64,000 bases of DNA, taken from positions 96,001-160,000 of the IMG/VR virus record IMGVR_UViG_3300037483_000594; one strand, 5' to 3'. Source of the DNA: a virus. The translations under genes and the position numbers were made by a program. Shown here in pieces: positions 57-49,886 of this stretch. Each line of letters starts with the position of its first letter. Position 1 is the first letter of the stretch. The notes under the pieces were generated by a model. It was not told the origin of the DNA. It saw nothing but the letters and a program-made list of their open reading frames with translations, and did no database searches.

Positions 57-1064
57 ATGTCCTCAAGCAAGCTGGACTACTTCGCGGAGATGATAGCTAG
101 CACCGCCGAGGCGGAGGCGGTCGAGAAGCTGGCGGCCCTGCCCCTGAGGGGGCTACGCCCGCTTATGCGAGAGCTGCGGGTGTCTGCCCCGAACACAGGG
201 CGGCTTGTAGGGCTAGGGGCCGGGGCTGCCGTGGGGGCCGGGGCTGGGGCGCTCGCCTCCCCAGAAGACAGGGCAGGGGGCGCGCTGAAAGGTGGGCTTA
301 TCGGTGGGGGCGCCGGGCTGGTCGGTGGTCAGTTTTTGACACGGGGAGGGGTAACCCAAGCCAAGAACTTCGGGTTGCGGCAGCTTCACGGGGCCACAGG
401 GTACCTTCCTGGGCAGGGGCTGGCGGGGGTGCACTCCATGACCCCAGCGCAACGCACGGCAGCCTTGGAGCAGATCGGTTGGAACGTGCCCAAGGGGCAC
501 GCCGTTGACCAAGCGGGGAAGCTGACCGCGGGCGCACTAGGCACCATGAAGTCGGACATCGCGGCCAAGCGCGGGGGCCTGGCCAAGTGGTTCTCCGGGA
601 CGGGGGTGGGCTCTCGGTGGGAAGGGAGCAAGGCGCGAGACCTTCTTCTCCGGAGCAGAGCCGCTTCGGAAAATGCGAACAGAGCTCTGGTGGAACAAGG
701 GCTCACGAATCTTCCGGGCGCGGCACGTGGGTACGCCCTGGGGGCCAAGGGCACGGGGCTCACCAGGTTGCAGCAGCTCAAAACGAACTTGATCGCCCCT
801 GGGATAGCCATGGGGGTGGGGCTCCCCGCTCTGTCGATCGCTGGCTCTGCTGCCGAGTCCTTGGAAAACAAAGACCCGCGCGGGTTCGCAAGCGACGTCG
901 TTGACACAGCGGGGTGGTCGGCGTTTGCTGGGTTGCCTATGCTGCCGGCACTGGCAGTAGGGCAGGGTATCGGGGCCGGGTCTAGGCTGCTTCTCGGGAA
1001 GCGTCCGAACCCCGCTGAGGTGCAACGGCTGGTGGGCAACGAGACCACGTGGGGTCCGCGATGA
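57..1064 (+). CDS. glycine-zipper virion/internal head protein (putative)
   Basis: N-terminal VEKLAA followed by GAGAAVGAGAGALASPEDRAGGALKGGLIGGGAG and further Gly/Ala hydrophobic helices; stop overlaps the portal start (ATGA). Confidence 0.5.
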   Translation: MSSSKLDYFAEMIASTAEAEAVEKLAALPLRGLRPLMRELRVSAPNTGRLVGLGAGAAVGAGAGALASPEDRAGGALKGGLIGGGAGLVGGQFLTRGGVTQAKNFGLRQLHGATGYLPGQGLAGVHSMTPAQRTAALEQIGWNVPKGHAVDQAGKLTAGALGTMKSDIAAKRGGLAKWFSGTGVGSRWEGSKARDLLLRSRAASENANRALVEQGLTNLPGAARGYALGAKGTGLTRLQQLKTNLIAPGIAMGVGLPALSIAGSAAESLENKDPRGFASDVVDTAGWSAFAGLPMLPALAVGQGIGAGSRLLLGKRPNPAEVQRLVGNETTWGPR

Positions 1065-2824
1065 GTCTGAACAACCCGCCGCAGGGCGGTTCCTACCGTG
1101 GAAGAGTCCGGGGAGGTTACACCGGGAGCCAGAGGTGGATCACCTACCCCGACCCGTTCTTTGACATAGCCGGGCTTTACCTTCCGGACAACATCAAAGA
1201 TCTGTTCCAGTGGTGTAGCTTTTACGCCACAGTTGACCCTATCGTCTCGTCCGCCGTGGGGTTCTTGGCCGAGTACCCTGTGACCAAGATTGGTGTCGAC
1301 GACGAAGACAAGTACGTGCGCGAGTTGTACGAAGACTACTTCAAGCAAGACCTGAACTTGCGTGCTCGCCTCATTGATGTTGGGCTGCACTACCAGACCT
1401 TTGGGAACGCGCTGGTGAGCTTGCTCTTCCCGTTTGTGAAGATGCTGACCTGCCCGAACTGCGGGGCCAGGGAGAAGGCGCGGGACGCTCAGTACAAGTT
1501 CCGGAACTTTCGGTTCCACCTGACCTGTCGTCGGTGTGGAGTCACTGGGGTCGCGGAAGCGCGCGACCAGTACTTGAAGACCACGAAGGGCGCTCGGTTG
1601 CTCGTGTGGGACATGACACGCATCGACAGCGTGCACAGTGAGATCACGGGGCGCTGCCGCTTCTACTACAACCCTCCTGTGGTGCTTGTCAACTCTTTGA
1701 AGTTGGGCACCGACCCGGACTTGGTTACCAGCACGCCGCAGGCGTTGATAGAGTCGGTGCAGAGGGGGGTGAAGCTCGCCCTCTCCGAAGAGAACGTCTA
1801 CCACATCCGACGCCCAACGGTCCTGAGCAGCCGGGCAAGGGGGCTGGGGGCACCCCCGCTCCTGCCTGTTCTGCGGAACCTGTTTCACATCACCCTGATG
1901 CGGAAGGCACAAGAGGCAGCACTCTCCGAAAAGTTGCTGCCTTTCCAAACCGTCTTTCCGCAGGCTGCCGCCGCTGGGGCCAGCCCGTTCGAGATGGTCA
2001 ACCTCGTGGACTGGGAGGACCGTGTCTACGACGAGATCATGAAGTGGCGGAGAGACCCGCTGCACATCGCTATCATGCCGATTCCCATGGGCTACCAGGC
2101 CCTGGGCGGAGAGGGCCGGGCGCTCCTGGTTACCAACGAGATTCGGAGCGAGTACGAGCTGGTGTTGGCCGGGATGGGTGTCTCTCCGGACATACCCTTT
2201 GGCGGTGCTTCGTACGCGGGGAGCAACGTCACTCTGCGGATGATGGAGAACAAGTTCCTGGCGTACCGCGCAGGGCTCGCGGAGATGATCGAGAGCTTCA
2301 TCATCCGGAGAACTGCGGCGTACATGGACTGGCCTCTGGTTCGTGCGCACGTACAGAACTTCAAGATGGCGGACGACCTCCAACGCAAGGCTTTCCTGTT
2401 GGAGCTGAACACCATGAAGAAGGTGTCCACCACAACCTTGCAGCGTGAAGCTGACCTGAACCCGGAAGAAGAGAACCGGCTTATCAAGGTTGAGGTCGCG
2501 CGTGATCTTGAGATCCTCCGGAAACAGCAGATGGGCGAAGCCGAGGTCATGGGAGAGGTGGGCCTGCTCCAGGCGAAGTACCAGGCCAAGGCCCAACAGC
2601 AGATGGCCCTGGAACAGCAACAGATGATGCAGGGGCAGTACGGCGTGGCCCCCGGGGAGTCCGGGGACGTGGGCGCACAGGCCCCTCTCGACCCAGCGAT
2701 GCTGCAGTCCATCCCCCAACTTCCGCAGGCTCCGCCCGAACAGTACCCCCAGGGCGGAGAAGGGGGTCTCCCCCTCCCGGAGGTGTACCCTCCGCGCCGT
2801 GGACCCGAGAGTGCCCTTATCTAG
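1061..2824 (+). CDS. phage portal protein with Zn-ribbon insertion
   Basis: 587 aa; portal-like segments (DPIVSSAV..LAEYP, HIRRP..GLGAPPLLPVLRNL, ELVLAGMGV); CPNC..CRRC insert; Q/P-rich tail. Confidence 0.7.
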   Translation: MSLNNPPQGGSYRGRVRGGYTGSQRWITYPDPFFDIAGLYLPDNIKDLFQWCSFYATVDPIVSSAVGFLAEYPVTKIGVDDEDKYVRELYEDYFKQDLNLRARLIDVGLHYQTFGNALVSLLFPFVKMLTCPNCGAREKARDAQYKFRNFRFHLTCRRCGVTGVAEARDQYLKTTKGARLLVWDMTRIDSVHSEITGRCRFYYNPPVVLVNSLKLGTDPDLVTSTPQALIESVQRGVKLALSEENVYHIRRPTVLSSRARGLGAPPLLPVLRNLFHITLMRKAQEAALSEKLLPFQTVFPQAAAAGASPFEMVNLVDWEDRVYDEIMKWRRDPLHIAIMPIPMGYQALGGEGRALLVTNEIRSEYELVLAGMGVSPDIPFGGASYAGSNVTLRMMENKFLAYRAGLAEMIESFIIRRTAAYMDWPLVRAHVQNFKMADDLQRKAFLLELNTMKKVSTTTLQREADLNPEEENRLIKVEVARDLEILRKQQMGEAEVMGEVGLLQAKYQAKAQQQMALEQQQMMQGQYGVAPGESGDVGAQAPLDPAMLQSIPQLPQAPPEQYPQGGEGGLPLPEVYPPRRGPESALI

Positions 2825-2849
2825 GTAAAAGAGAGCATTGCGCTCTCTG
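2825..2849 (-). terminator. intrinsic terminator of the minus-strand island
   Basis: AGAGAGC-GCAAT-GCTCTCT hairpin followed by a T run on the minus strand. Confidence 0.6.
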
Positions 2850-2868
2850 AGTATGTAGTGAGAGTACG

Positions 2869-3183
2869 CTACGCGGGATTGAAGTCCCACCCACCATGGG
2901 TGAGGATGGTCTCGATCCCCTCTCTGAGGGGCACGAAACTCTCCTCCTCACCGTATGCGCAGTAGCCGAACCCTGGGCTCCAGCTCTTCTTGACGAGGAA
3001 GCCCCTCTTTTCCCCGAGGTAAGCTGGCGTTACGGTCACGTCGTCGTGACCGTAATCTGAGTGATTCTCCTCGAAGGAGAATACGGAGAACTCCCCCACC
3101 AGGAGGGGAGTTTCGCAATCCTCGGGCTCCGACTGCGCTGTCGGACCCCTTCGCATCATAGATGTTTTTTCAACGAACTTCAT
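2869..3183 (-). CDS. hypothetical protein
   Basis: ORF overlapping the upstream island gene; start uncertain. Confidence 0.45.
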   Translation of the reverse strand: MKFVEKTSMMRRGPTAQSEPEDCETPLLVGEFSVFSFEENHSDYGHDDVTVTPAYLGEKRGFLVKKSWSPGFGYCAYGEEESFVPLREGIETILTHGGWDFNPA

Positions 3184-3593: not shown

Positions 3594-3704
3594 TCTCTTA
3601 TCCTTTCCTCGTCGATGATGAGGCACAAAGCCAACCAGGGGACTCCTCGCTCATCGCGGCACGTGTGCCACGCGAGCGTCTCCCCGTCCTCTGTTGAGGA
3701 CGGG

Positions 3705-14395: not shown

Positions 14396-14767
14396 ATGAC
14401 CAATCTTGAAAAGCTGGCGTTCGCGATTCAGATGCAGGCATGCCTCGACACCATGTTCCAACTGGAAAAGGAGGCGATGCTCGAAGCCGCCGCCCTCGGA
14501 AAAGAGGCCGGGGTCTCCACGTTCTTCTCCGGGCTCGGGAAGGGGTTGAGCAAGCTGCGCGCCCCGGGTGGTATCGCGCAGACGGCAACCGACCTCACCG
14601 AGGCGTGGCGTAAGGGTGCGGGTGGTGGAGCTGGTGCCCTGGGCGGCCTCGGCGGGGTGCTCGGGACCAACCGGGGTAAGCTGCTTGCCGGTGGGGCGCT
14701 CGCGGGCGGGGCCCTCTTGGCTGGTGGCGGCTACTTGGCCGGGCGCAGCTCGCAGCCACGGGACTGA
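14396..14767 (+). CDS. small glycine-zipper protein
   Basis: AGGAG RBS; LEKLA/LEKEA/GKEA leader; C-terminal GGALAGGALLAGGGYLAG. Confidence 0.65.
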   Translation: MTNLEKLAFAIQMQACLDTMFQLEKEAMLEAAALGKEAGVSTFFSGLGKGLSKLRAPGGIAQTATDLTEAWRKGAGGGAGALGGLGGVLGTNRGKLLAGGALAGGALLAGGGYLAGRSSQPRD

Positions 14768-15861: not shown

Positions 15862-15895
15862 TTGTTTGGTGTACACTGCTGCTAAGGGTGAAAAG

Positions 15896-17911
15896 ATGTC
15901 AGAGCTTTTTCGCGAGGTAGCGCTCCCCGTTCTTCAAAAAACAGCCGGGAACTTTCGGTTGTCGAACTCCGCAGACAGTTGGCCGGAAGAGATCATGAAC
16001 TCGCTGTTGGAAGCGCACGCGTACCTGGCCGCCATGGACCTGCGTATGGACATGCAGAACGTGGACGGAGAGCAGGGCTTTGGCCTTGGCGTGTTCTATG
16101 TGTCCCCCCCGCACGTGATGCCCAACCAGGGCCCCGGGACAGAGACCTACAGGCAGCGTGACGGGGTGCGCGCTCTCCGGATTCCGATTCTTGTCAACGA
16201 GTACAAGCTCTGCCCGTTCGACATCGTTATTGACGAGCGCGGTAAGGTCTACCCACTGAACGAAGAGCGTGTGCGGAGGTTGCTGTACAGACCGCAGCTC
16301 TTTGACGCCACCACGCAAAAGAACGAGCGCAGTGCCATCGATCGTGTCTTCATGCCGTTGCTGCGGCAGGGCAACCTTTCTGGGGTCAGTGACTTCGCTG
16401 CCGACTACATGAAGTACGGCTCGGCTTTGGTGTCGATGCTCCCCGGGGCCGACCACCGACAGATAGAGGCCACGGTGCGCGAGCTGCAGGACGACAGCAC
16501 CCTGCTGAAGGCGGCGAGCCATGACCCAGTGATCTCCCGACTTTTGGCGGTGGTGGGAGCGGCCGGGGTGATAACCCCCTCCGAGAAGACGAAGTTGGCC
16601 AGCGAGATGCTGCGCCCAAACGTGGTGCAGTACCGGCGGGTGGGGGACTTCTACAAGGTCAAGATGGCCAACACCACGTCCTTTGCCCCTGCGGAGGCCA
16701 CGCTGGACTACCCAACGCTCGTGGAGGACATCGGACGCGAGAACGCGCACGAGGTCAACTCCAAGGGCACCCTGACCCTCACCGCGGACCCGGTGGTGGA
16801 CGAGGTGCTGGAAGAGGCGGCCGGGTCCCTCGTCACCCAGTTCGGAGAGTGGCGCGTGAAAGGCCGGAACGGCGTGGAGCGTGTGGGGTGGGTCTTTCCG
16901 GAAGTGCGCTCTTTCACGGGAGTAAGGCTCCCGGTCAAGATTTTCAACAACGGGGACAGTTGCGCGATCCAGGAAGAGATCGCTGGGAGCTTCGTGGGCG
17001 CCGGGGTCAACCTTGTTCGTGGTGCGGTGAAGGGGCGGGGGCTCTTCTACCGCATTACCAACAGCGGGACCGTGGTGGCTTTTGAGCCTTGCGAGATCCA
17101 GAACGGGTACACGCAGAACAACCAGCTTGTCTACGAGCTCACTACCGTGACCGACCCCCTGGTTGTGATCACGGTGCGCCAGGTCCCCGAGCTGAAGTTG
17201 ATCACAAAGCTGCGGGACCGAGAGTACGGTATCCCGGTGGACGTGCGGTGGATGCCCCTTGGTGCCTCGCTGGTGGAGCTCGTATCCACCCCCGAGGCCT
17301 TCGCCAAGCTCAGCTCGGCCCGCACCGAGGTCCGATGCAGGGGCGGCCGGTGGTCTTTCCAAGGTGCTGCCGTGGAAAAGATCGCTGGCGTGATGGCCAC
17401 CCGGGACCTCGATGGACCAGATGCGATGTTCGTCTCCGCCTGCCTGGGGCTGAGCCCCAGTGCGTCCATAAAGGCGCTCGAGAAAGCGGCCACGGGGCGC
17501 TCTGTACGAATTTTCGGATGTAGGTCTTGCGTGCTCCCAGCCGAGCGTGTAAAAACGGCGAGTGCTGTAGCGCGACCGGTTGCACAACACTACGTCAACG
17601 TCATGCCCTCCTCCCGCTCCCTGATCAAGGAGGCGCTACACCTTTCCAAGTTTGCGTTGGACGAACTTGGAATTGACACCCTTGATCAGGTCCTGTCCCT
17701 GGGGTACCTCAGCCCGTCGAACGCCGCGAGTGCCGTGGAGCACCTTCCGAGTTTCGAGGACAGCGTGAACAGGCTCGCTGCCCTGCTGTTGGACGTGCGG
17801 CTGGGTGCCAAGATCGGGACCGACGACGGGGAGATCGCGGTAAAGACGGCCATGGACTCCTTCGAGAAGGTCATTGCCGGGCTGCGAAAACTGGTGCGTA
17901 CGAGGAACTGA
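15896..17911 (+). CDS. K-x-A-rich putative head protein
   Basis: 671 aa with about 9 K-x-A sites (LQKTAG, LLKAAS, TKLAS, VEKIAG, VKTAS...). Confidence 0.55.
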   Translation: MSELFREVALPVLQKTAGNFRLSNSADSWPEEIMNSLLEAHAYLAAMDLRMDMQNVDGEQGFGLGVFYVSPPHVMPNQGPGTETYRQRDGVRALRIPILVNEYKLCPFDIVIDERGKVYPLNEERVRRLLYRPQLFDATTQKNERSAIDRVFMPLLRQGNLSGVSDFAADYMKYGSALVSMLPGADHRQIEATVRELQDDSTLLKAASHDPVISRLLAVVGAAGVITPSEKTKLASEMLRPNVVQYRRVGDFYKVKMANTTSFAPAEATLDYPTLVEDIGRENAHEVNSKGTLTLTADPVVDEVLEEAAGSLVTQFGEWRVKGRNGVERVGWVFPEVRSFTGVRLPVKIFNNGDSCAIQEEIAGSFVGAGVNLVRGAVKGRGLFYRITNSGTVVAFEPCEIQNGYTQNNQLVYELTTVTDPLVVITVRQVPELKLITKLRDREYGIPVDVRWMPLGASLVELVSTPEAFAKLSSARTEVRCRGGRWSFQGAAVEKIAGVMATRDLDGPDAMFVSACLGLSPSASIKALEKAATGRSVRIFGCRSCVLPAERVKTASAVARPVAQHYVNVMPSSRSLIKEALHLSKFALDELGIDTLDQVLSLGYLSPSNAASAVEHLPSFEDSVNRLAALLLDVRLGAKIGTDDGEIAVKTAMDSFEKVIAGLRKLVRTRN

Positions 17912-19208: not shown

Positions 19209-19760
19209 ATGCAGGTTTTTGCAGAGTCCTACACGGCGACCTTGCTCAAGTGCGCGGCGGACGTGCACCAGCTATACGCCGCCTCTCCTTGGCAAAAGGC
19301 GCGAGCAGCCCTGGGCAAGGCAGCCCCCTACGCCAAGGGTTCGGCGATTGGTGGCGGGTTTGGGGCTTTGACAGGCGCGACAGCCGCCCTCCCGGAGGAA
19401 GGGGAGGAGCCAGCGGGTCTAGCCCCTGTGTTGGTGGGGGCAGGGGCCGGGGCTCTCACCGGAGGGGTCTTGCTGGGGAGTGCCCTAAAAAGACTGGGCT
19501 CGAGCCCAGCGCGCGCACGCGCTACAGAGGCTGTGCAAGAGCTTGAGAGACGACGGAAGGGGCTCCCGGCCCCCGACTCAGGAAACGTGATAAACATGTT
19601 CTCAAGGCGGCCCACCCGTAACCTGGAAGCTGTCGGCACTCGTGCGGTTGACCAGATGCCAGACCCTTCACTTCTTGAGGTCCCCGCGGCGCTCCTCGGG
19701 ACAGTGGCCGCCCCGATGGTTCTCGCCCCGCTAGCCGCCCACCTGGCAAAGGAGGAATGA
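19209..19760 (+). CDS. glycine-zipper protein
   Basis: LLKCAA leader; GGGFGALTGATAA...GAGAGALTGG. Confidence 0.6.
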   Translation: MQVFAESYTATLLKCAADVHQLYAASPWQKARAALGKAAPYAKGSAIGGGFGALTGATAALPEEGEEPAGLAPVLVGAGAGALTGGVLLGSALKRLGSSPARARATEAVQELERRRKGLPAPDSGNVINMFSRRPTRNLEAVGTRAVDQMPDPSLLEVPAALLGTVAAPMVLAPLAAHLAKEE

Positions 19761-19975
19761 TGCCATTCGTCTCGGAGAGTCAGCGCCGAAAGTTCTACGC
19801 CATGAAAGAGCGCGGAGAGGTCAGCGCAAAGGTCGTCAAGGAGTTCGAGAAGGGCTCCCCGGAGGACCTCCCGGAACGTGTGAAGACCGCTGCCTACTGC
19901 GAAGCCTACGGGCTCGAGCTGCTCAAGGGGGCAGCCCCCCGCTGGAAACAGCTTCTCCGTGGCAAGGAGATCTGA
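19757..19975 (+). CDS. small basic phage protein
   Basis: AAGGAGG RBS; MPFVSESQRRKFYAM..RGE..LPERVKTAA. Confidence 0.65.
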   Translation: MMPFVSESQRRKFYAMKERGEVSAKVVKEFEKGSPEDLPERVKTAAYCEAYGLELLKGAAPRWKQLLRGKEI

Positions 19976-20499
19976 TGCGCGCGCTTCTGGTGCAGGGGGG
20001 AGCACTCGCTGACACGCTCCTGAAGCTTGCGGAGAAGCCTCTCCGTGAGCGCGTAGAGGTGTACGCTCTCAAAGACGGAAAGGTCCTGGCCGGCATCTAT
20101 CCGGACGGGTCAGTGGGTGTGCCTGGGGGAGGGGTGTCCTCCGGGGAGTCCCCCGAGCACGCGGCAAAGCGGGAGTACAAGGAAGAGGCAGGCCTGACCG
20201 TCAAGAACCTGCAGCCCCTTCCCGTGCCCCCACTTGTTGAAAAGTGGGAGAAGCGGAAGGACCTCACCGACAAGGAGAAGGAGCGGCGCAAGGAGTTCTC
20301 CGGGTCGCGCACTCACTTCTACATAGCCGACCTTTCCGGAAAAGGCGGGAAGGCGGTGGACCCCTCCGCGTTGAAGAGGCTCGTTCCGCGTTCGGTAGCG
20401 GCTCTTGTCGACAAGCTGCAAGAGCAAGCCGACTCCGGGAAGAAGCGGGACAAGGTACGCCTCAAGGTACTCGAGACTGTCCAGGAGTTAACCAGCTAA
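19975..20499 (+). CDS. Nudix hydrolase
   Basis: Complete Nudix box GGGVSSGESPEHAAKREYKEEAGL. Confidence 0.9.
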   Translation: MRALLVQGGALADTLLKLAEKPLRERVEVYALKDGKVLAGIYPDGSVGVPGGGVSSGESPEHAAKREYKEEAGLTVKNLQPLPVPPLVEKWEKRKDLTDKEKERRKEFSGSRTHFYIADLSGKGGKAVDPSALKRLVPRSVAALVDKLQEQADSGKKRDKVRLKVLETVQELTS

Positions 20500-26101: not shown

Positions 26102-26458
26102 ATGTTCAGCTTACTCGACAAATCAGCCAAGTTGGCGAGTGTCCTTGGGACGGTGGGCCGAGGGGCCGCCGGTGCCTACGACGTGATCGGCTCGGGGACT
26201 GCCGGGATGGCCGACGCCATCAGGCGGCTCTCCGCGGCCGGGTCCGCTACCGGGCAAGCGTCTGGGGTGGCGAACACCGCAGCGGGGCTGGTGCGCGCGG
26301 CGCCGTGGCTGGCGGGCGGGGCCCTTGCAGCCAAGGGGGTCAACGACGTGGCCGGAGACCCCGTGGGGCGTGAGATCGAGTTCCAGAAGGAACAGATGCG
26401 CCAGCGGCTTGCCCAGACCAGGGCTGTCTGGGACCCGGACAGGGGGATGATGCTGTGA
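26102..26458 (+). CDS. small Gly/Ala-rich protein
   Basis: AGGAGG RBS; LDKSAKLAS leader. Confidence 0.6.
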   Translation: MFSLLDKSAKLASVLGTVGRGAAGAYDVIGSGTAGMADAIRRLSAAGSATGQASGVANTAAGLVRAAPWLAGGALAAKGVNDVAGDPVGREIEFQKEQMRQRLAQTRAVWDPDRGMML

Positions 26459-27042
26459 CACCAATCGACGAGTTCGCAGCGCTCGAAAAAACGGCTTTCA
26501 ACTGGGCACACCCGGCTGTAGGGGTAGCTTCCGCGGTGGCTGCCCCACTGGTGGTGACCGGGATCGCTGCCGGGCTGGGGGCTGCCAAGGACGCTATCGT
26601 CAAGGCTCGTGGATTTCGGCAGATGGTCGAGCGCAACCCGGAGCTGCAGGACCAGCCTGCCGCGCTTGTGAAGGAGCGGTACAACTCGCTCTACCGCATC
26701 TCCCCCACGATAATGAGCGACCCTGTCTCCGCAGGGGGGATCATGCGGGGCTTGGACACCTACGGCGGGATGCTTCATCCCAACGCGGTCAAGGAGCTGG
26801 CGGACGCGGAGAACAAGATGCACCGTCCCCTGTCCCCGATGATGAACCAGCTCATGTCGAGTACGACCCAGGCCATGGCAAACATGCCCGCTAGCTTCAT
26901 GGCCGCTGACCGGGATCGGTTGAAGGCCGAGGATATGCTTCAGGCGCAGCAGCTCGCCCGGCGCAAGGCCACCCTTGAGCAGGCGAAGTTCAAGCTGGAC
27001 AAAAAGCGGTTCAACCGCGATGAGCTCAGCTACTGGGACTAG
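26455..27042 (+). CDS. putative internal head protein with a hydrophobic helix
   Basis: LEKTAF leader then AVGVASAVAAPLVVTGIAAGLG. Confidence 0.6.
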   Translation: MTPIDEFAALEKTAFNWAHPAVGVASAVAAPLVVTGIAAGLGAAKDAIVKARGFRQMVERNPELQDQPAALVKERYNSLYRISPTIMSDPVSAGGIMRGLDTYGGMLHPNAVKELADAENKMHRPLSPMMNQLMSSTTQAMANMPASFMAADRDRLKAEDMLQAQQLARRKATLEQAKFKLDKKRFNRDELSYWD

Positions 27043-27043: not shown

Positions 27044-27892
27044 ATGCTCTACAAAGTCGCCACGGTACTGAGTCACGGGGAGGAGGACGGGTACACCCGG
27101 CTTGTCTACCCGCGTGGGTACAACGACCATCTCGAAAAAACAGCGTCGGACCCTGTTGCCATCGAGGCGCTGCGTTCGTTTGCCCACGAGCACCTTCCGC
27201 AGGACTCGGACAAGGTGCACACGCTGATAAGTGCGATGGGCGCAAGCGAGTACTACGGGAGCAACTCCAACGGGGACATCTTTTCCGAGCGTGCCTTGCA
27301 GCACAAGCCCGAGCGGTGGGACACCATGTCCTACCAGCAGCAGAAGACCGAGGGGAAGCAGTGGGAGTGGGGGTTCCCCACCTTCTACAACGCGCTGCAG
27401 TTCATGCACCACGGCAACAAAGTGCCGGAGAAGGCCATCGGCACCGTAGAGTACACCACGTGGGACGACCACATGAAGCGTGTGCTCCTGATCGTGTCGT
27501 TTAGCCGTGGAGCAGCGGACAAGTTCGGGGGGTCCAACACCATCCGTAAGATCGACGCCGGGGAGCCCGTGGCCGTGTCCATGGGGGCTCGCCTGCTCTT
27601 CGACTACTGCTCGGTGTGTGTAGACTGGCCGCGCCTCGTGCCGTTCGGAGACAACCCCACCGCTATCTTGACCGAACACCACCGCAAGCCTATTCGGGGG
27701 GTGAGCACGGACAAGAACGGGTACTGTACCCATATCCGCACCCAGAACAACGCCATCCTCCCGAACGGAGTGCGGGTGGGCATGATCAACCCCTACCCAC
27801 GCTTCTTCGACATCTCCGCAGTCTACATCGGGGCGGACAAGACCTCCTTTGTGCTGGCCAAGCTGGCAAGCGCTCCTTTGTGGGTAGCGTGA
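27044..27892 (+). CDS. prohead maturation protease (HK97/herpes-type serine protease, putative)
   Basis: NSNGDIF, FMHHGNK (candidate His), AVSMGA (candidate Ser), CSVC..CTH, FFDISAV..GAD; upstream of scaffold and capsid genes. Confidence 0.7.
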   Translation: MLYKVATVLSHGEEDGYTRLVYPRGYNDHLEKTASDPVAIEALRSFAHEHLPQDSDKVHTLISAMGASEYYGSNSNGDIFSERALQHKPERWDTMSYQQQKTEGKQWEWGFPTFYNALQFMHHGNKVPEKAIGTVEYTTWDDHMKRVLLIVSFSRGAADKFGGSNTIRKIDAGEPVAVSMGARLLFDYCSVCVDWPRLVPFGDNPTAILTEHHRKPIRGVSTDKNGYCTHIRTQNNAILPNGVRVGMINPYPRFFDISAVYIGADKTSFVLAKLASAPLWVA

Positions 27893-30243: not shown

Positions 30244-31122
30244 ATGGACGAGACCTACGAGTGGCTCAAGGGATACTTTGGGATGGACAAAGAGGCGAGT
30301 GCGGCCAAGGAGCAGGAAGTCTCCGTGGCCCAAGAGAAGATCGCCTCGGACCTGCTGTTCGCGCGGAGTGCCGTCGAACAGCTCGAGAAGGACGCCGCGG
30401 CGTCCGGTGTCGACCTGACGCAGTACGATGATGACGCCATCCTGCAGCTCGCGCTCGAGCGGGCGCAGGGCACCCAGGAGAAGACCGCTGGTCAGCAGAT
30501 GACCCCGGAGCAGGAGTTCGTGGAGCTGCACAAGTTCGCCGGGCAGATCCAGGGCTTCTCCGCGTTCCAGACGCTGCAACAGCTCCTGAAGGAGGGCGCG
30601 GCGGCCGAAGAGGTGGCGAGCGCGAGTGGGAAGCTGAAGAATCTCGGCTCCAAGGCCTGGGACGCACTGAAGGGCGCGGAGCGCAAGGCCAGCGGCGCCG
30701 TGGGCGATGCCACCCGCACGTCCGGGCAGAAGAGCAAGGCGTGGGAAGACGCGGCCAAGTCGGTCAAGGAGGAAGAGTCCGCCCTGCTCTCACCTCGCGG
30801 GAAGATGAACCTGACGGAACAGCGGGTGAAGGACGAGCAGTTGTCCCGTGGCCGGAAGATCATCGGCGGCACGGCGGCAGCCCTGGGTGTCGGTGGAGCC
30901 GGTGCGGTGGCAGCCACCAAGAAGGACGGCAAGACCGCCGAGGCGTCCGCGGTGGAGAACCTGATCGAGCTCCGACAGATCGACATGCTCAAGGAGGCCG
31001 GGTACGTGGACCAAAACGGGAACGTCGTGGCCCCCGATGCGCCGCAGGAGAAGACTGCGGAGTTCATGTCCGCGATCGACGCGGAAGCGCTGCGCCGCTT
31101 GCACAAGCTCGGCTACCGCTAA
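30244..31122 (+). CDS. scaffold-like protein with an embedded glycine zipper
   Basis: Acidic helical sequence with many K-x-A sites; GGTAAALGVGGAGAVAA. Confidence 0.6.
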   Translation: MDETYEWLKGYFGMDKEASAAKEQEVSVAQEKIASDLLFARSAVEQLEKDAAASGVDLTQYDDDAILQLALERAQGTQEKTAGQQMTPEQEFVELHKFAGQIQGFSAFQTLQQLLKEGAAAEEVASASGKLKNLGSKAWDALKGAERKASGAVGDATRTSGQKSKAWEDAAKSVKEEESALLSPRGKMNLTEQRVKDEQLSRGRKIIGGTAAALGVGGAGAVAATKKDGKTAEASAVENLIELRQIDMLKEAGYVDQNGNVVAPDAPQEKTAEFMSAIDAEALRRLHKLGYR

Positions 31123-31137: not shown

Positions 31138-32532
31138 ATGAATCGCATTGCAGAGCTTGTTCAACGGAGTCTTCACCGGACTTCTGGGATGCAGAAGCTG
31201 GCTGAGGACATCGTTGACAAGCGGTGTGAGCAGTGCGGGAAGGCGATCCCTCCGGACACCGAGCTTTGTGAAGAGTGCGCAGCCCAAAAGGCTGCCACAG
31301 AGGCGCAGAGCATGGGTGCCGAAGGGCCAGCACCCGCACTCGAGGTCACCGCAGGGCTCCTTGACCCGGCAAGGGTCGAGAAGCTGGCCATGGCGATGGA
31401 CTACCTGGCCGCGAACCCGCATACGGTCGACTGGGCTGACGTGATCAAACGGTCTTCGGACATGGGTGCGCCGATGACCGACGAGAACTCTCCGCCACCC
31501 CCGGCATCGACCATCGAGCTGGGCTCCTCCAAGGAGCACCCCACCCTGGACAACCCCCTGAAGCCCGGTGGGGAGCCTGGGGAGCTGCGCACCGACGAGA
31601 ACGTGGTGCCCGAGATGGCGCCAAAGACTGCTGCTATCAACCCGCACATAACCGACGTCCTCTCCACGATTCGTGGAGCTGCTATCCCGACAGGAGTTGG
31701 GGCGGGTACCCTGCTGGGCACGGGGGTTGGGGCTGCGACAGGTGCTCTTGCCGCTGGGGAAGACCAGCGTGGCGCAGGAGCGTTGCGTGGGGCACTCATC
31801 GGCGCCGGTACCGGTGCAGTCGGTGGTGGTCTTCAAGGGTTGGCGCTTCGGCGGGGCGCCGGGCACGCCATAGAGGGGTTGGAAACGATTTCGGACCCGG
31901 CGCTGCTCGCCCGGCTCGGGCAGGAAAAACTCCCGTCCAATGCGTTCAGGGATCTTATGAAGGACCCGGACATGGCGACGGCCATCATGGGGTCTGGCAT
32001 AGATGGCCGCATTGGCAAGGCAGGAGTTGCGCTCAGCGCAGCGGGGGCACTGGCAGGCGCTCCGCTCCTGGCGAGCCAGCTTCGTGGTGTCCCCGAGGAG
32101 ATGGAGGTCACGGCCTCCGCTTTGGTCCGCCGGATCATGAAAAAGGCGGAAGCAACACTCAACCCTGAGGACAGGCCACCTCAGGAACGTCCTGCAGAGG
32201 TAACACAGCAGGAAGCGTTGATCGCTCCGGTGGACGGAGCACTCAACCTCACCCCTGAGCAGGCGGCTGCGGTACCGAAGAAGCAAATGGGCGATTTGCT
32301 GGACGAGCCGATGCAGAGCGCACAGACCGACCCGGTCATCCAACAGGCGTTTAGCCCCGAGATGGTGGCCGACGCGGGCGCGAAGGTCGCGTCTTCCGCG
32401 TTGATCAGCAAGCTCGCGGCTGAGCTCTGTTCGTGTGGCGGGGCCGGGACCTGCGGTCCCTGCAAGATCAAGACGGCAGCCATGAAGAGCACTGCTGCAC
32501 AGGCCATGCGGCAGTCAGGAGGACGACGATGA
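31138..32532 (+). CDS. scaffold-like protein with Zn ribbon and glycine-zipper module
   Basis: CEQC..CEEC; PKTAA...GTGVGAATGALAAGEDQRGAGALRGALIGAGTG...; C-terminal CSC..CGPC. Confidence 0.6.
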   Translation: MNRIAELVQRSLHRTSGMQKLAEDIVDKRCEQCGKAIPPDTELCEECAAQKAATEAQSMGAEGPAPALEVTAGLLDPARVEKLAMAMDYLAANPHTVDWADVIKRSSDMGAPMTDENSPPPPASTIELGSSKEHPTLDNPLKPGGEPGELRTDENVVPEMAPKTAAINPHITDVLSTIRGAAIPTGVGAGTLLGTGVGAATGALAAGEDQRGAGALRGALIGAGTGAVGGGLQGLALRRGAGHAIEGLETISDPALLARLGQEKLPSNAFRDLMKDPDMATAIMGSGIDGRIGKAGVALSAAGALAGAPLLASQLRGVPEEMEVTASALVRRIMKKAEATLNPEDRPPQERPAEVTQQEALIAPVDGALNLTPEQAAAVPKKQMGDLLDEPMQSAQTDPVIQQAFSPEMVADAGAKVASSALISKLAAELCSCGGAGTCGPCKIKTAAMKSTAAQAMRQSGGRR

Positions 32533-33371: not shown

Positions 33372-34496
33372 ATGTTGGACAGTAGGACTGCGCAGCTCAA
33401 CAACGCCTTCATGGAGAAGGTGGCCTCGGCCCCTGACAAGCTGGCGCGAGCAACTTCCTCGACGATCGAAGACCACATGCGGGAAGCCGCGTTCGTGCGC
33501 TCGATCCTCACGTTCAAGGACGTGAGCCCGGACGACCCGTTCATCAAGAACAGCACCCACACGGACACCCTGGTGGCGGTGGTCGGGATTCAGCCTGACT
33601 CTCGCGCCATGGTCGTCGACTTTCGTGGGCGGCCTGACGCACAGCTCGTGTCCGGACAGCGCGTGGAGGTCGGGTTCTTCACGATCTCCTCACAGCTCTT
33701 CCAGGCCTACGAGATCGAGCTCTTGGCCTACGACGAGTCGATCACCAAGCGGATCGAAGAGCAGAGCGCCCTGGACATCGAGGAGATCGAGGACCGGGAG
33801 TGGATCATCCACACCGACGCGGCCGTCCAGGCCATGCAGACCGAGTTCAACGGTGGGGCGGTCACCTCGCTGCACGAGACCACCATCACCGCCGGGACCG
33901 TCCGGGAGTACTCGGTGGCCAAGAGTGCGTGGGCGCGTGTGGACACCAACAACAACGCGTTCAAGTGGCCCACCCTCAAGCAGGACCTGGTGCGCGGGCA
34001 ACAGATGATGGTGGAGCGTCGTCTGCGGGCAGAGACCGTGCTGCTCCCGGACACCAACTACCTCGACCTGTTCCTGTGGACGGTCGACGAGACCGGGCAG
34101 CTCATCCCCAGCGAGACCGCCACCGACGGATGGAAGTCCGAGAAGGTGGTCGGGCTGAAGATGTTGCGGTCGATCAAGCACGACATCCTGCGCCCAGGGA
34201 ACGTGTACTTCTACCCCGCGGAGAAGTACTTGGGCGTGGCGTTCAGGCTGCAGAAGCTGCAGTTCTGGATCGACAAGGAGCAGGACCTCATCGAGTGGAG
34301 GTGCTGGGAGATCATCGCCATGGCGTTGATCAACATCGGTGCCCCCACCAAGATCGAGACCTACTCCGGGGATGCCACCACCCTCGACGCGAACGCTATC
34401 GCTGCCAACGTGCAGCCGGTGGCCGAGTCGGCAGTGGGCATCACCAACAACCGCGTCGAAGACGACCTCATCTTCCCCCAGATCAAGTTCTACTAG
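33372..34496 (+). CDS. major capsid protein
   Basis: 374 aa, strongly biased codon usage, AAGGAG RBS; HK97/encapsulin-like segments (REAAFVRSIL, IEEIEDREW); position after protease and scaffold. Confidence 0.8.
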   Translation: MLDSRTAQLNNAFMEKVASAPDKLARATSSTIEDHMREAAFVRSILTFKDVSPDDPFIKNSTHTDTLVAVVGIQPDSRAMVVDFRGRPDAQLVSGQRVEVGFFTISSQLFQAYEIELLAYDESITKRIEEQSALDIEEIEDREWIIHTDAAVQAMQTEFNGGAVTSLHETTITAGTVREYSVAKSAWARVDTNNNAFKWPTLKQDLVRGQQMMVERRLRAETVLLPDTNYLDLFLWTVDETGQLIPSETATDGWKSEKVVGLKMLRSIKHDILRPGNVYFYPAEKYLGVAFRLQKLQFWIDKEQDLIEWRCWEIIAMALINIGAPTKIETYSGDATTLDANAIAANVQPVAESAVGITNNRVEDDLIFPQIKFY

Positions 34497-41933: not shown

Positions 41934-43064
41934 ATGCTTCCAAAAGTAGCCGCGTTTCGGACCATGCTTCGCCGCCCTCTGGTTGACGTTACACCACCTG
42001 TGCTGACCAAAGAGGCCGCCCGGGGGTTGAAGAAGCTGGCACAGCTTTATGAGCTGGCGAAGCTGGCGCGGACCCCTCAGGAGGAGTTCGAGGAGGCAGC
42101 GCTGACAGACCCGGAGATTAACGCGGCGTTGGACTACGAGCAGGCCATGGCGGAGAACGCTGTGCTGCGAGAGCAGGTGCTGGGGTTGCAGCAGTCACAT
42201 GGAGAGCTGCAACAGCAGATGGCAGCGCAGGAGCAGCAGTTCGCCGGGGCACAGCAGCAGATGGCCATGATGCAACAGCAGCTCGACGCCGAGACCCAAG
42301 GGCGGCAGAGCGCGGTGCAGCAGGCTCTCATGGCCAAGGACTCAGAGCTGGCACAGCAGGCGAGCCTGCAGCTCCAGCGCCAGCAGCTCGCTGCTGCCGC
42401 CGACTCTCTGGCACTCCAACTCAAGCAGCTCGCCGCCACCCCCCCAGAGGCCCAAATGGCGCAGGCGGCAGAGGCAGAGCAGGCCACCGCTATCCAGGGA
42501 GACCAGGCAGCACTGCAGACCCTGCCCTCCAATCTCCGCAAGCAGGTGGTGGAGGCGCAAAACGCGGAGCAGACGGCGGCTGTCCAAGGCCAACAGGCAG
42601 AGCAGGAAGCTGCCATGGAGGTCACCGGCTCGGACGTCAATGCTCTTCGCCAGGCTTTTCAGAAGACAGCGGCCAAGGTAGTACCCCCGCTCTCCGCGTT
42701 GGAAGAGTTGGCCCCCTTGCTCATCGCAACTCCGGCAGGTGCTGGGGTGGGGGCTGCACGGAGCCTGTTTCGGAAGTCGGACACCCCCACCGCGGCGGAG
42801 GGGCGGCTCGAGGCGCGGCTTGCAGAGCACGACGCGCAACTCGCGGAAAACGAAACCCCAGCACTCCGTGCCAGGAGAGAGATGATTTCTGCAGAACTCG
42901 CGGATAAGCGTGCGCTGCGCACCGACAGGGGGTACGCGCTAAAAAGCGATGCTGTGGGTGGTGCCTTAGCAGGCTTGAGTGTGGGTGGTATTGCCTCCGG
43001 GCTTCGTCAGATTGCCCGGGGTTCTGACGAGTACGTTAAGCGGTTCGGGAAGGAACTGGTGTGA
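41934..43064 (+). CDS. Gln-rich coiled-coil protein with C-terminal glycine zippers
   Basis: KVAA/KEAA/KLAR/KTAA; long Q/A heptads; GAGVGAA and GGALAGLSVGG. Confidence 0.6.
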   Translation: MLPKVAAFRTMLRRPLVDVTPPVLTKEAARGLKKLAQLYELAKLARTPQEEFEEAALTDPEINAALDYEQAMAENAVLREQVLGLQQSHGELQQQMAAQEQQFAGAQQQMAMMQQQLDAETQGRQSAVQQALMAKDSELAQQASLQLQRQQLAAAADSLALQLKQLAATPPEAQMAQAAEAEQATAIQGDQAALQTLPSNLRKQVVEAQNAEQTAAVQGQQAEQEAAMEVTGSDVNALRQAFQKTAAKVVPPLSALEELAPLLIATPAGAGVGAARSLFRKSDTPTAAEGRLEARLAEHDAQLAENETPALRARREMISAELADKRALRTDRGYALKSDAVGGALAGLSVGGIASGLRQIARGSDEYVKRFGKELV

Positions 43065-43930
43065 TCAGTATCCGAAAGTTCAGGGTGGTGTCCCTCACGG
43101 TGGGGACCTACGACCTGTTTTGGGAACTGGACGATACGGTCGAGGACGCCCTGGACTACGCGTTCACTGTAGAGCGCAGCGAGAGCCCGGGGGGGCCTTG
43201 GGACGTGGTGTCCCAGCCCTTCCGCGACAAGTACATGTTCCGGGATATGTCCGTGCCGGGGGTGAACAAGTGGAGGCAGCTCTTTTACCGGGTCAAGATC
43301 GAGGGGGCCGCGGGGACGGCCTACTCGGGGCTGGCCACCCAGGAGGCGCAGCCTGACCTCTCGGCCACCGAGGCGCGGAGGATGATGAACCTGGTCCTGA
43401 AAGAGGGGATCGGGAGGGTGGTGTGGCTCTTTCCCGTCCGCACTTTTGGGACACGCTGCCCTGTGTGCTTTGACCCCGTGCTCGGGAAGCGGGTCAGCTC
43501 CAACTGCCTGTCGTGCTACGGGACAGGGTACGCTCGTGGGTTCATGGCGCCCTTGGCCACCTACCTCCGGATTGACCCCACCGAGCGTGCGGACCAGCTC
43601 GGGCAGGTGGTGACCCAGCAGCAGACAACCCGGGCGCACACTGCCTATTACCCGCTGGTGAAGCCGCGGGACGTGCTCGTGGAGGCGGAGAACAGACGGT
43701 GGCGTGTGGTGTCTTCCCAGGCGCCAGAGCGCCTGCGTGCCCCCATCTGGCAGGGGCTCACGCTACACGAGATTCCGCCCACTGACATTGAGTACAGGCT
43801 GCCTATCAACATCGACGACCTGCGCCGTGTACAGCCCTCTCCGGAAAGGGCGTTCACGAACCCCCAGACCCCAGACGAGGCTGGGTCACGCCTCGCCACG
43901 CTGTTTGACGTGTTTAGGAGCTACGGATGA
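43061..43930 (+). CDS. neck/head-closure protein (putative)
   Basis: FN3-like N-terminus (VERSESPGGPW), CPVC..CLSCYGTG, PLVKPRDVLVE..RWRV. Confidence 0.55.
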   Translation: MISIRKFRVVSLTVGTYDLFWELDDTVEDALDYAFTVERSESPGGPWDVVSQPFRDKYMFRDMSVPGVNKWRQLFYRVKIEGAAGTAYSGLATQEAQPDLSATEARRMMNLVLKEGIGRVVWLFPVRTFGTRCPVCFDPVLGKRVSSNCLSCYGTGYARGFMAPLATYLRIDPTERADQLGQVVTQQQTTRAHTAYYPLVKPRDVLVEAENRRWRVVSSQAPERLRAPIWQGLTLHEIPPTDIEYRLPINIDDLRRVQPSPERAFTNPQTPDEAGSRLATLFDVFRSYG

Positions 43931-44340
43931 ACCACCTGCTCGACGCCCAGGTCCGCACGATGCTGAAACTGGCGCAGGACTTCCCCCCGCCCTACTCTCC
44001 GGATGTGCCTCCACCTGAGCGCCCGGGGCCGCACTACGTGGCGCGGTTGATCGGGGACGCCGCCCTCATAGCCGGGGGGACCACCCTGGGCATGGCCGGC
44101 GCCGACATGGGGCTGAAGAGGCTGGCAGCCACCGAACGGTGGAAGAACATCTCCCCCACCGGGAAGAAAGCGATCGTGGGGACAGGGGCCGCTGCGGCTG
44201 GGGCGCTCACCTCTCTTGTGACAGGGCTCATGCGTCAAGACCGTAACCGCCGGATCGCGGAGGGCATAGCCCTGGACGAGGCACGGCGACAGCCCGTGCG
44301 CACCCCGCGTATCGTGCAGACGATCGAGGACGCGGAGTGA
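43927..44340 (+). CDS. small glycine-zipper protein
   Basis: MLKLAQ leader; two Gly/Ala hydrophobic helices. Confidence 0.55.
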   Translation: MNHLLDAQVRTMLKLAQDFPPPYSPDVPPPERPGPHYVARLIGDAALIAGGTTLGMAGADMGLKRLAATERWKNISPTGKKAIVGTGAAAAGALTSLVTGLMRQDRNRRIAEGIALDEARRQPVRTPRIVQTIEDAE

Positions 44341-48386: not shown

Positions 48387-48411
48387 TTCCGCAAAAGAAG
48401 GAGCAAAAGAG

Positions 48412-49128
48412 ATGTCACTCGCAAGTTGGGACCCAATGAACCACCTGGTACAAGGTGGGCTGCGGAACGGGCGGTATGTCAACGGAGGGTTGACCCTGAT
48501 CGCTGCCGGACCCCCGGAGCTGTCAACCATGGCTGCGCTGGCGAGCGCGCTGGGGTCGTCGGAGACCTCTCACTCTGACATCGTGTGGCCCCTGGGCATC
48601 ACGCAGAGCGCCGGGATCTCGCAACAGCGCCAGTTCTCCAGGATCTACGAGCTCGGCTCCGAGCGCTCCATCTGGGTGGCCGGGCGGACCATGGGGTCGT
48701 TGAACATCGCGCGTATCTGGGTGGACGGGCCGTCGATGCTGCGGGCGCTGTATGCCTACTACCAGGACCTGCTGCCCCCCACGCAGGTGCCATGGCTGTT
48801 TCCGAACCAGGCGGCTACCGCGCTGGCGAACCCGCACAACGTGCGTATCCCCCCGGGGTACGAGAACCTGTACCTGAACCTCGGGAGCGACCTGTTCACG
48901 CAGCCTATCGGGTTCATGCTCATGACCCTGAACTCGAACCTGCAGACGATGGGCGTCGTGTACCTGGAGAACAGCGTGGTCCCCCAGCACCAGTGGGCAA
49001 CCGATGCTCAGGGAACGCTGGTCCAGGAGTCGGCTGGTATTCAGTACGAAAGAATGGTACCAGTTAACGTAAGCGCGGTGCCTGTGATCACCGGTGAGGA
49101 AGAAACCACTGCAGCTCTGGCAGCATGA
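48412..49128 (+). CDS. tail tube protein
   Basis: Follows the sheath gene; LGITQSAGISQQRQFSRIYELGSER..ESAGIQYE. Confidence 0.75.
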   Translation: MSLASWDPMNHLVQGGLRNGRYVNGGLTLIAAGPPELSTMAALASALGSSETSHSDIVWPLGITQSAGISQQRQFSRIYELGSERSIWVAGRTMGSLNIARIWVDGPSMLRALYAYYQDLLPPTQVPWLFPNQAATALANPHNVRIPPGYENLYLNLGSDLFTQPIGFMLMTLNSNLQTMGVVYLENSVVPQHQWATDAQGTLVQESAGIQYERMVPVNVSAVPVITGEEETTAALAA

Positions 49129-49886
49129 GGCCTTTCGTGGCTGATCCACTCATTGATTTTCTGGTACAAGAGAGCCTTCGGTACTGCCAGAAGGTGGCGG
49201 CCTACCAGACCAAGGCTGTGGCAGCGCAGCGCATCGGGGCGGCGCAGGTCAAGACCGCCGCACCTTTTGCACGAGGACTGGTAAGCCGGCTGCTCCCCCG
49301 TCGCGCCAACACCCTGTTGCGTGGCCCTGGTGTAAACAAGGTGCAGACGTCGCCGGGGGTGTTCGCGCGTTCCGTGTCACCCACAGCGTCCACGGTGGCG
49401 AAGCCTCGCACGGCGGTGAGTACGCCGATGTCGTCCACGGCGAACACAGTGGCAGGCACTCCGGCGGCCATGGGGCCTTACCGTGCGGCCCCACCACCCT
49501 CCGGAAAGACCCCCCTTCCGACCCCACCACCCCCAATGCAGAACCCTCCGGTTCCGGCGGCACCTCCCAAGCCGCTTGTGACCAACGAGGAGTTGGCCGC
49601 GGCGCAGCAACGTGGGCGGGACAGGGCTGCCCAGAACGCTGGGTACGCGGACTCGGCGTCATCTCCGCAGTCCGTGGCAGACGCGCAGAACATGGCAGCG
49701 GCCAAGGCACCAAAGCGCAAGGGGTGGAGCCCGTGGGGGACCGCTGCTGTCGTCAGCTCTCTGGGTCTCCCGCTTCTCGGCGGAGCTGCCTTACTAGGGA
49801 CGCAAGCTCTGACTCAGCGCCCCCCGGGCTCGTACCAGTTTGGTGGTGGGGCGCCGGCTCCTTGGATGTCTCCGCAGCAGATGTGA
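49125..49886 (+). CDS. Pro-rich protein with C-terminal hydrophobic helix
   Basis: QKVAA/VKTAA leader; C-terminal AAVVSSLGLPLLGGAALLG. Confidence 0.55.
   Translation: MRPFVADPLIDFLVQESLRYCQKVAAYQTKAVAAQRIGAAQVKTAAPFARGLVSRLLPRRANTLLRGPGVNKVQTSPGVFARSVSPTASTVAKPRTAVSTPMSSTANTVAGTPAAMGPYRAAPPPSGKTPLPTPPPPMQNPPVPAAPPKPLVTNEELAAAQQRGRDRAAQNAGYADSASSPQSVADAQNMAAAKAPKRKGWSPWGTAAVVSSLGLPLLGGAALLGTQALTQRPPGSYQFGGGAPAPWMSPQQM

Follow-up and report, generated by a model that had tools for sequence, protein, structure and literature searches.

The window analyzed here comprises 64,000 nucleotides (nt), i.e., bases 96001–160000 of a single 170,135-bp phage contig with 60% GC (IMG/VR record IMGVR_UViG_3300037483_000594), and all coordinates are given as window positions. 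Its structural gene block contains a dispersed set of open reading frames (ORFs, named by their first position) with glycine-zipper helices. Judging from profile comparison, the hairpins of two of them, the pre-portal protein ORF 57 and the acidic scaffold-like protein ORF 31138, are one real module. In ORF 57 this hairpin follows an N-terminal leader ending in a K-x-A motif, and in ORF 31138 it lies between K-x-A sites. The reading favored here, to which a probability of about 0.55 is assigned, is that of a T4-style capsid cargo that would be cut at K-x-A and ejected. It is carried by the sequence anatomy of these proteins, the homology of the module, its gain and loss among relatives, the enrichment of the motif and the fold of a prohead protease encoded in the same block. 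Relatives were examined at 80 major capsid protein (MCP) loci and 80 portal loci, together with the complete structural regions of two full relatives, G001 and G003.

One hairpin module in the pre-portal and scaffold-like proteins

In the pre-portal protein ORF 57, a leader helix terminates in E-K-L-A (K24–A26) and is followed by the two helices of the glycine-zipper hairpin (amino acids (aa) 46–97), then by a conserved body, all-alpha and marked by the motifs FGxRQxHGxTG and GLTxxPG. The family was found 5′ of the portal gene in about 70 loci, with this same layout of leader, hairpin and conserved body. The hairpin is nearly universal, being missing in loci L128 and L141 and doubled in several members. 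The AlphaFold2 (AF2) model of the protein is all-alpha, with a predicted local distance difference test (pLDDT) score of 76.5, and its helices 45–65 and 69–94 correspond to the hairpin (pLDDT about 70–79). No significant fold match to this model was obtained in PDB or BFVD, and the ESM Atlas yielded weak leads only.

A hidden Markov model (HMM) of the hairpin was then built from ten relatives of ORF 57, window sequences being excluded, and its scores were compared with those of 2200 locally shuffled decoys. ORF 57 scored 42.1 bits, ORF 31138 21.1 bits, the 31138-orthologue of locus L006 17.6 bits and the G003 protein G3_70191 28.9 bits, the best decoy reaching 6.0 bits. Smith-Waterman comparison against shuffles gave a z of 7.5 for the 57–31138 pair and of 5.9 for 31138 with ORF 19158/19209. 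In an alignment of the hairpins (A5), the scaffold-embedded copies are in register with the pre-portal copies. Glycines stand at positions 3, 7, 11, 15, and 19 in the first helix and 34, 38, 42, and 46 in the second, those at 3, 11, 15, 19, 38, 42, and 46 being invariant. The hairpin is hence made of five and then four glycines, each four residues apart, with a short charged loop between the two series. The initial annotation had proposed that three ORFs share a hairpin. This stands for 57 and 31138, on the evidence of the profile, of Smith-Waterman comparison and of alignment A5, and falls for ORF 19209, which with 3.0 bits was rejected at the profile level as a third family member and is merely hairpin-like. 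A recent duplication of the hairpins was also rejected, the DNA-level comparison having given only short, out-of-register, GC-rich matches.

Glycine zippers in the structural gene block

The + strand frames named in the initial annotation are coding frames according to a codon-usage gene caller, with weak support for 19158 and 49125. Gly-rich, uncharged hydrophobic segments were detected in ten + strand ORFs of the structural block (57, 14396, 19158/19209, 26102, 26455, 30244, 31138, 41934, 43927, and 49125), in line with the earlier estimate of about ten ORFs with GxxxG-rich hydrophobic helices. Among the ten, 26102 is weak and the segment of 26455 is an Ala/Val-rich transmembrane (TM) segment. 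Glycine-zipper counts exceeded those of within-protein shuffles in ORF 57 (14 vs. 4.5) and ORF 31138 (9 vs. 2.4), and also in 41934 and 19158. Gly–Gly distances of 4 and 8 were enriched and those of 1–3 depleted, with a z of 3.4 for Gly i+4 in the window and of 9.6–12.2 for i+4/i+8 in two orthologue sets. Such spacing puts the glycines on one face of the helix, as in a true glycine zipper. As had been noted from the sequence, none of the ten ORFs has an N-terminal signal peptide; in its place, each carries an acidic leader with a K-x-A among the first 35 residues. Scanning the ten ORFs at full length against Pfam and PHROG assigned no family.

Glycine-zipper proteins were found at matching syntenic positions in G001 and G003. 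ORF 14396, in which K-x-A occurs four times for 1.2 expected, has a syntenic 121-aa counterpart in G001 with a leader and a glycine zipper. The G003 counterpart of the coiled-coil protein 41934 (G3_70191) is 867 aa long and carries six glycine-zipper segments, one of which fits the hairpin profile with the score given above. The genes syntenic to 43927 in G001 and G003 encode small glycine-zipper proteins, and in G001 three neighboring small hairpin proteins start with the identical leader FSDELQKIA. In ORF 26455, the hydrophobic Gly/Ala helix (aa 20–44) is TM-grade and close to the N-terminus. ORF 19209/19158 has a low coding score of 0.107 per codon and no glycine-zipper orthologue in G001 or G003; likewise, ORF 49125 scored 0.084 per codon and no orthologue of it was found in these two genomes.

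Relation to the glycine-zipper 2TM superfamily

A Pfam scan of the hairpin segments gave sub-threshold, near full-length matches to Gly-zipper_YMGG (E 0.0024; 0.00085 for the L006 copy) and to Gly-zipper_Omp. With the A5 profile, only 120 proteins were retrieved at E <= 1e-3 among 1.84 billion representatives. They form three groups, namely the pre-portal family, other leader-bearing proteins, and bacterial proteins with a signal peptide or lipobox. An N-terminal hydrophobic-x-K-x-A/S leader is present in half (52/104) of the matches not classed as pre-portal by the strict FGQRQxHxxTG pattern. The bacterial matches had library-wide E-values of 1e-6 to 1e-3, and all seven that were scanned lie above a curated Pfam cut-off (Gly-zipper_YMGG, Gly-zipper_Omp or Rick_17kDa_Anti), six of them for at least two of these three families and P0188 for Rick_17kDa_Anti only. 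These reciprocal profile links to bacterial glycine-zipper proteins argue that the phage hairpin is a divergent phage branch of the glycine-zipper two-transmembrane (2TM) superfamily, in which the K-x-A leader replaces the signal peptide. Like the bacterial 2TM proteins (PF13441, PF13488, PF05433; SlyB, YfgH, OsmB, YiaD), the phage copies have two GxxxG helices and a short charged loop. Unlike them, they are devoid of signal peptide or lipobox and of periplasmic domains, and stay below the Pfam cut-offs. Glycine zippers of the 2TM type are embedded in membranes, and in SlyB the domain oligomerises into rings that enclose lipid (bioRxiv 10.64898/2025.12.22.696046).

Variable cassettes in the scaffold-like proteins

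The module is also found inside proteins that resemble scaffolds. In ORF 30244, where K-x-A occurs nine times for 4.4 expected, the glycine-zipper helix is flanked by basic residues and lies immediately 5′ of a K-T-A site and of the conserved C-terminal domain. In 22 of the 30 distinct orthologues, one or more such helices immediately precede a conserved K-x-S/SAxDxLAExRA site; the eight others have none. In ORF 31138, the hairpin is bracketed by KTA (aa 163–165, nt 31624–31632) and KKA (aa 335–337, nt 32140–32148). The C-terminal 130 aa of this protein are conserved, and the orthologues also share its N-terminal part. Across 47 loci, these orthologues vary from 345 to 1105 aa and from 0 to 14 glycine-zipper segments. 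None is found in the forms of 345–380 aa, one in some, three in those of the window and of L006, and 14 in the 1105-aa form. The cassette units are separated by K-x-A/S, e.g., P-K-E-A-S or R-K-T-A-G, and K-x-[AS] is enriched in the inserts of 12 expanded orthologues (84 vs. 44.8 expected, z 7.3) with R-x-[AS] remaining flat. Hence, the earlier description of a module set in an acidic scaffold-like protein (30244 has a net charge of −9, 31138 one of −13) and bracketed by K-x-A (KTA and KKA) was recovered, and the check proposed with it, i.e., whether orthologues gain or lose the module between such sites, revealed gain, loss and multiplication between K-x-A/S. As far as sequences can tell, the polyprotein-like layout of 30244 and 31138 is real.

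Of the eight loci without the 30244 helix, five are loci with a heavily expanded 31138-type protein. A reciprocal distribution was observed: in L033, L036, L052, L061, and L080, the 31138-type protein is expanded with many hairpins and the 30244-type protein has no glycine-zipper helix; conversely, L001–L004, L057, and L076 have a bare 31138-type protein and retain the helix in the 30244-type. Besides, ORF 31138 starts with a zinc ribbon (CxxC...CxxC) in its N-terminal part and has a cluster of Cys (CSC...CGPC) in its C-terminal part, both kept only in its closest relatives.

The K-x-A motif and the prohead protease

In the head block, K-x-A occurs 110 times for 72.8 expected (z 4.7) and K-x-A[SAE] 49 times for 17.9 expected (z 7.9), in the context (L/M)-E-K-(T/L/E/V)-A-(S/A/G/E). 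The related patterns R-x-A, E-x-A, A-x-K, KA, and K-xx-A were not enriched, and K-x-A is flat in the rest of the genome. Among the 38 head-block proteins, 19 have the motif in their first 35 residues, vs. 19 of 164 proteins elsewhere (p 7e-7). An N-terminal K-x-A is present in all eight head-block ORFs meeting the glycine-zipper criteria, vs. 11 of the 30 other head-block proteins (p 0.003). It is also found near the N-terminus of the MCP family, where K23 is invariant and A25 is present in at least 90% of the sequences.

Such a motif could be processed by the product of ORF 27044–27892, which, from its modeled structure, is a T4 gp21-like prohead protease with predicted activity. Its AF2 model (pLDDT 76.7) matched 5jbl, of the T4 gp21 fold, with a Z of 10.9 and a root-mean-square deviation (rmsd) of 2.9 Å over 147 of 164 residues, and the next-best fold matches were herpesvirus assemblins (Z about 5). 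A search of PDB sequences with the protease profile gave no match, so that a fold search was needed. In this family, H122, H123, and S179 are invariant and K32 nearly so, and K-x-A motifs are conserved in the disordered N- and C-terminal flanks. Herpesvirus assemblin cuts its maturation and release sites at (V/L/I)-x-A↓S. Since the gp21 and assemblin families both cut three-residue motifs with a free middle position, and given this assemblin site, K-x-A↓S is a plausible site for the phage enzyme. In G003, the protease homologue (L019 / G003 59813–62749 of the assembled region) is 978 aa long, its protease domain being divided, between query residues 177 and 567, by some 390 inserted residues that are possibly an intein.

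The cultured distant relative Arash

Even the closest isolates, the 181-kb myovirus Arash (a Salmonella phage) and three Vibrio phages, are very distant (MCP 23% identical). The head module of Arash nevertheless follows the same logic. Gp222 of Arash is a homologue of the protease (E 5e-27), ORF 26455 is homologous to Arash gp221 (phmmer E 1e-8), and the glycine-zipper proteins of Arash are gp213, gp221, and gp224. All three are included in the list of proteins identified by liquid chromatography coupled to mass spectrometry (LC-MS) in Arash virions, with 93–100% coverage, and RNA polymerase subunits are among the most abundant proteins of this list (PMC10585845). This virion link supports the packaging of glycine-zipper proteins; it is not proof of it. 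The supplements of that study hold annotations and no peptide list, hence give no reading of cleavage.

In Arash (L172, 136720–165568), the acidic gp220, gp223, and gp225 and the MCP carry K-x-A-S repeatedly. Therefore, the putative cleavage code seems, from these sequences, to extend to a cultured and genetically tractable phage.

Proposed mechanism and comparison with known systems

The proposed cargo would be composed of two parts. The leader of roughly 20 residues, which ends in (L/M)-E-K-x-A, with S, A, G or E as the usual next residue, most likely acts like the T4 capsid-targeting sequence and would load the protein into the prohead, after which the gp21/assemblin-type protease would cut the leader, probably after the Ala. 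The second part would be one or more glycine-zipper hairpins, either free behind the leader, as in the pre-portal and small proteins, or arranged as scaffold cassettes, in which case cuts at K-x-A/S around the cassettes of 30244 and 31138 would release hairpin peptides inside the head during maturation. These peptides would remain in the head and exit at infection, along with the DNA and the RNA polymerase of the virion. Once ejected, the hairpins may insert in the host membrane and help macromolecules across, as the glycine zippers of Tde1 do. Such a membrane action is inferred by analogy with the superfamily and with Tde1. Indeed, the glycine zippers of Tde1, a DNase effector of the type VI secretion system (T6SS), make the inner membrane permeable so that translocation can take place, and they are similar to the C-terminal ends of tape measure proteins (TMPs) (PMC10240207). 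The translocation region of Tde1 and the C-terminal TM region of TMPs that is similar to it have continuous GxxxG repeats overlapping a TM-like segment, a pattern also present in the phage hairpins (PMC10240207). The Tde1 zippers are delivered by a contractile tail-like machine (PMC10240207), whereas the zippers described here are separate capsid-module proteins or scaffold cassettes, and they are likened to Tde1 by pattern and not by homology. A weak match to the TMP family phrog_167 (E 0.024) was obtained for aa 185–274 of ORF 31138.

The closest parallel of the leader is provided by the internal proteins of T4 (IPI-III, Alt, gp67, and gp68, with gp21 as protease) and by the ejection proteins of SPN3US and phiKZ, which have a short leader ending in a three-residue motif with a free middle (PMC3012670; PMC10052503). 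As in these systems, one motif is common to MCP, scaffold and protease, the enzyme adopts the gp21 fold, and the genes belong to the head module. The RNA polymerase gene is located in the same structural block, packaging of the polymerase being shown, among this phage and its relatives, only for the distant Arash. In place of L/I-x-E or A-x-E, the motif is (L/M)-E-K-x-A, at which cleavage is putative here, and instead of enzymes and DNA-binding proteins, the cargo would be glycine-zipper hairpins, present also in scaffold-like polyproteins as cassettes whose number varies. No homology of the ten ORFs to the T4 internal proteins, Alt, gp67 or gp68 was detected by the Pfam and PHROG scans. The herpesvirus assemblin sites likewise have Ala at P1, often Ser at P1′ and a free P2, for a related protease fold (Z about 5), and differ by an aliphatic residue at P3, which is Lys here if the presumed cut position is right. 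No published description of such a system of leader and glycine zipper was found in the literature searched.

Little is understood of how large phages move their DNA and a virion RNA polymerase of 2000–3400 residues over the cytoplasmic membrane. In this respect, what the initial annotation put forward, an entry conduit or early membrane compartment, is speculation. A more specific version of it, which we regard as a long shot, is that the hairpins oligomerise around host lipid like SlyB rings and form, where the phage enters, a patch of membrane or a vesicle with a protein belt, sheltering the genome and the co-injected RNA polymerase from host defences. If true, this belt would be the equivalent of the vesicle that nucleus-forming jumbo phages have early in infection, encoded genetically and tunable through copy number. 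The clade (>340 MCP relatives) could also serve as a candidate toolkit offering a new hydrophobic-E-K-x-A leader and cleavage code, a two-helix module and natural variants with 0 to 14 copies, the leader being a possible tag for the capsid loading of proteins. The association of a leader with a glycine zipper as a mark of capsid cargo might be a general rule that could improve the annotation of "hypothetical" phage proteins.

Evaluation of alternative explanations

Several points weigh against the capsid-cargo reading. For this phage, cleavage, packaging, ejection and membrane action are all steps that we infer, and K-x-A might serve for binding or for helix capping instead of being a cut site. 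The mean hydropathy of the glycine-zipper helices (Kyte-Doolittle (KD) 0.9–1.5) is under the classical TM threshold, five of the ten ORFs carry merely one generic Gly-rich helix, and 19158 and 49125 are doubtful as genes. The hairpins miss the Pfam gathering thresholds, with best scores of 18.0 (31138) and 14.7 bits (ORF 57) for cut-offs of 28.9 and 25, and the hairpin profile reached no solved chain, SlyB included, among PDB sequences. The Arash virion list holds 116 proteins including metabolic enzymes and is hence unspecific, and the 100% coverage of Gp221, Gp223, and Gp224 conflicts with a complete removal of leaders and scaffold (PMC10585845). Finally, composition-adjusted pairwise BLASTP among the hairpins of 57, 19209, and 31138 gave nothing significant, so that the likeness of the hairpins is visible only with profiles. 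This null result, together with a modest genome-wide excess of glycine-zipper motifs (162 vs. 128.7 expected) and the poor support of 19158 and 49125, is compatible with a compositional artefact, i.e., with Gly/Ala-rich stretches of a 60% GC genome that have no common ancestry or function. An artefact is possible for 19158, 26102, and 49125, and is largely refuted for 57, 31138, and 30244 by the i+4/i+8 periodicity, by profile scores well over those of locally shuffled decoys, and by the restriction of the A5 profile to its 120 matches in the whole library together with syntenic conservation over the clade; as an overall explanation it is highly improbable. The loss of similarity after low-complexity masking, set beforehand as a refutation of the module, is thus half observed: composition-adjusted BLASTP loses it, whereas the 57–31138 profile score stays far above the decoys.

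A purely internal structural role, in which the packed helices form a scaffold core or inner body, fill it, or adjust the pressure of the head, away from any membrane, retains a small but real share of the likelihood. Indeed, GxxxG faces generally drive helix–helix packing, the host proteins are acidic, scaffold-like and encoded 5′ of the MCP, and related giant phages contain large internal protein masses (PMC10052503). However, the module is related to membrane-embedded 2TM domains, occurs on small free leader-bearing proteins as well, and varies freely in presence and number among close relatives with near-identical MCPs, which would be odd for a structural core. The membrane-embedded nature of 2TM glycine zippers would instead suit an anchor for prohead assembly, also unlikely, in which the hairpins hold the initiation complex of portal and scaffold at the cytoplasmic membrane of the cell that makes the phage, in the manner of T4 gp20-gp40, until cutting at K-x-A frees the prohead, with no delivery to the next host. 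The overlap of the pre-portal gene with the portal gene, its nearly universal hairpin and the presence of hairpins in scaffold-like proteins adjoining the protease are consistent with such an anchor. Yet the leader site of the pre-portal protein precedes the hairpin, and a cut there would leave the hairpin attached; signal or insertion sequences are absent, the Arash glycine-zipper proteins occur in particles, and 0 to 14 copies in one scaffold protein along with many small leader-tagged hairpin proteins suit a cargo better than a fixed anchor. The small size and hydrophobicity of several of these proteins, and the TM-grade helix near the N-terminus of 26455, could also suggest that they serve in the membrane of the host cell during the infection cycle, as holin-like, superinfection exclusion or receptor-masking proteins, and are merely located in the structural operon. 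This is very improbable in view of the co-orientation of the ten genes and their interleaving with portal, protease, scaffold and MCP genes, of a leader motif common to them, the MCP and the protease, of the stronger TM proteins typical of lysis genes encoded elsewhere (59710–61341), and of the Arash homologues in the particle preparation.

Genomic setting and neighboring genes

The features of the window are collected in Table 1. The MCP has more than 340 relatives at 43–59% identity, on uncultured contigs, many of 170–200 kb, and the terminase is only about 25% identical to that of any isolate. A single-protein MCP scan of viral contigs gave no match, an alignment-based search being required to find the loci. 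The myovirus morphology of the clade is deduced solely from its distant relative Arash. The RNAP-encoding Caudovirales lineage described previously (PMC7481178) was not equated with this clade, its MCP being of T4 type (PF07068).

Table 1. Coordinates of the glycine-zipper ORFs and of other genes of the structural block.
Feature	Coordinates	Strand	Remarks
Pre-portal glycine-zipper protein, 335 aa	57..1064	+	Overlaps start of portal gene; hairpin nt 192–347
Portal	1049–2824		Structural block
Fused beta-beta′ multisubunit RNA polymerase, 3368 aa	4281–14387		Inside structural block, between portal and baseplate-like genes
Small protein directly downstream of RNA polymerase gene	14396..14767	+	N-terminal L-E-K-L-A leader; C-terminal glycine-zipper segments aa 74–116 (nt 14615–14743)
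Conserved 681-aa protein	15866–17911		Unknown fold
Lineage-specific ORF	19209..19760	+	Hairpin-like Gly-rich pair nt 19338–19487, plus third hydrophobic helix
NUDIX hydrolase	19975–20499		Structural block; L-L-K-L-A at residues 15–19
Terminase	22244–24040
Two small head-module proteins	26102..26458 and 26455..27042	+	Both with N-terminal K-x-A leader
Prohead (capsid maturation) protease, T4 gp21 / herpesvirus assemblin fold (predicted)	27044..27892	+	AF2 model, fold search
ATP-dependent-ligase-like ORF	27616–29313		Overlaps protease 3′ end, other frame
Acidic scaffold-like protein, net charge −9	30244..31122	+	One glycine-zipper helix nt 30859–30918
Acidic scaffold-like protein, net charge −13	31138..32532	+	Variable middle insert carries hairpin nt 31675–31833
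Major capsid protein (MCP)	33372–34496	+	phrog_2522
Gln-rich coiled-coil protein	41934..43064	+	N-terminal K-x-A motifs; C-terminal glycine-zipper helix nt 42951–43004
Small protein	43927..44340	+	M-L-K-L-A leader; two Gly/Ala-rich helices nt 44059–44103 and about 44170–44230
Basic Pro/Ala-rich ORF, uncertain gene	49125..49886	+	One Gly-rich hydrophobic segment nt 49722–49802

The RNA polymerase gene contains Intein_splicing, LAGLIDADG_3, and Hom_end domains. Its G001 orthologue has 2076 aa, hence about 1300 aa of the window gene are inserts. The ligase-like ORF has a K-L-D-G motif, a ligase OB domain and a match to phrog_114. Its probable start is close to an L-L-K-L-A motif, and its product is a candidate for an enzyme packaged in the virion; the ORF is absent in G001 and G003, where the protease genes bear other C-terminal extensions. 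The NUDIX hydrolase, with a weak Nudt16-like decapping match, could be a further leader-tagged cargo. In the conserved 681-aa protein, K-x-A occurs 10 times for 2.7 expected, which is the top per-protein enrichment outside the scaffold region.

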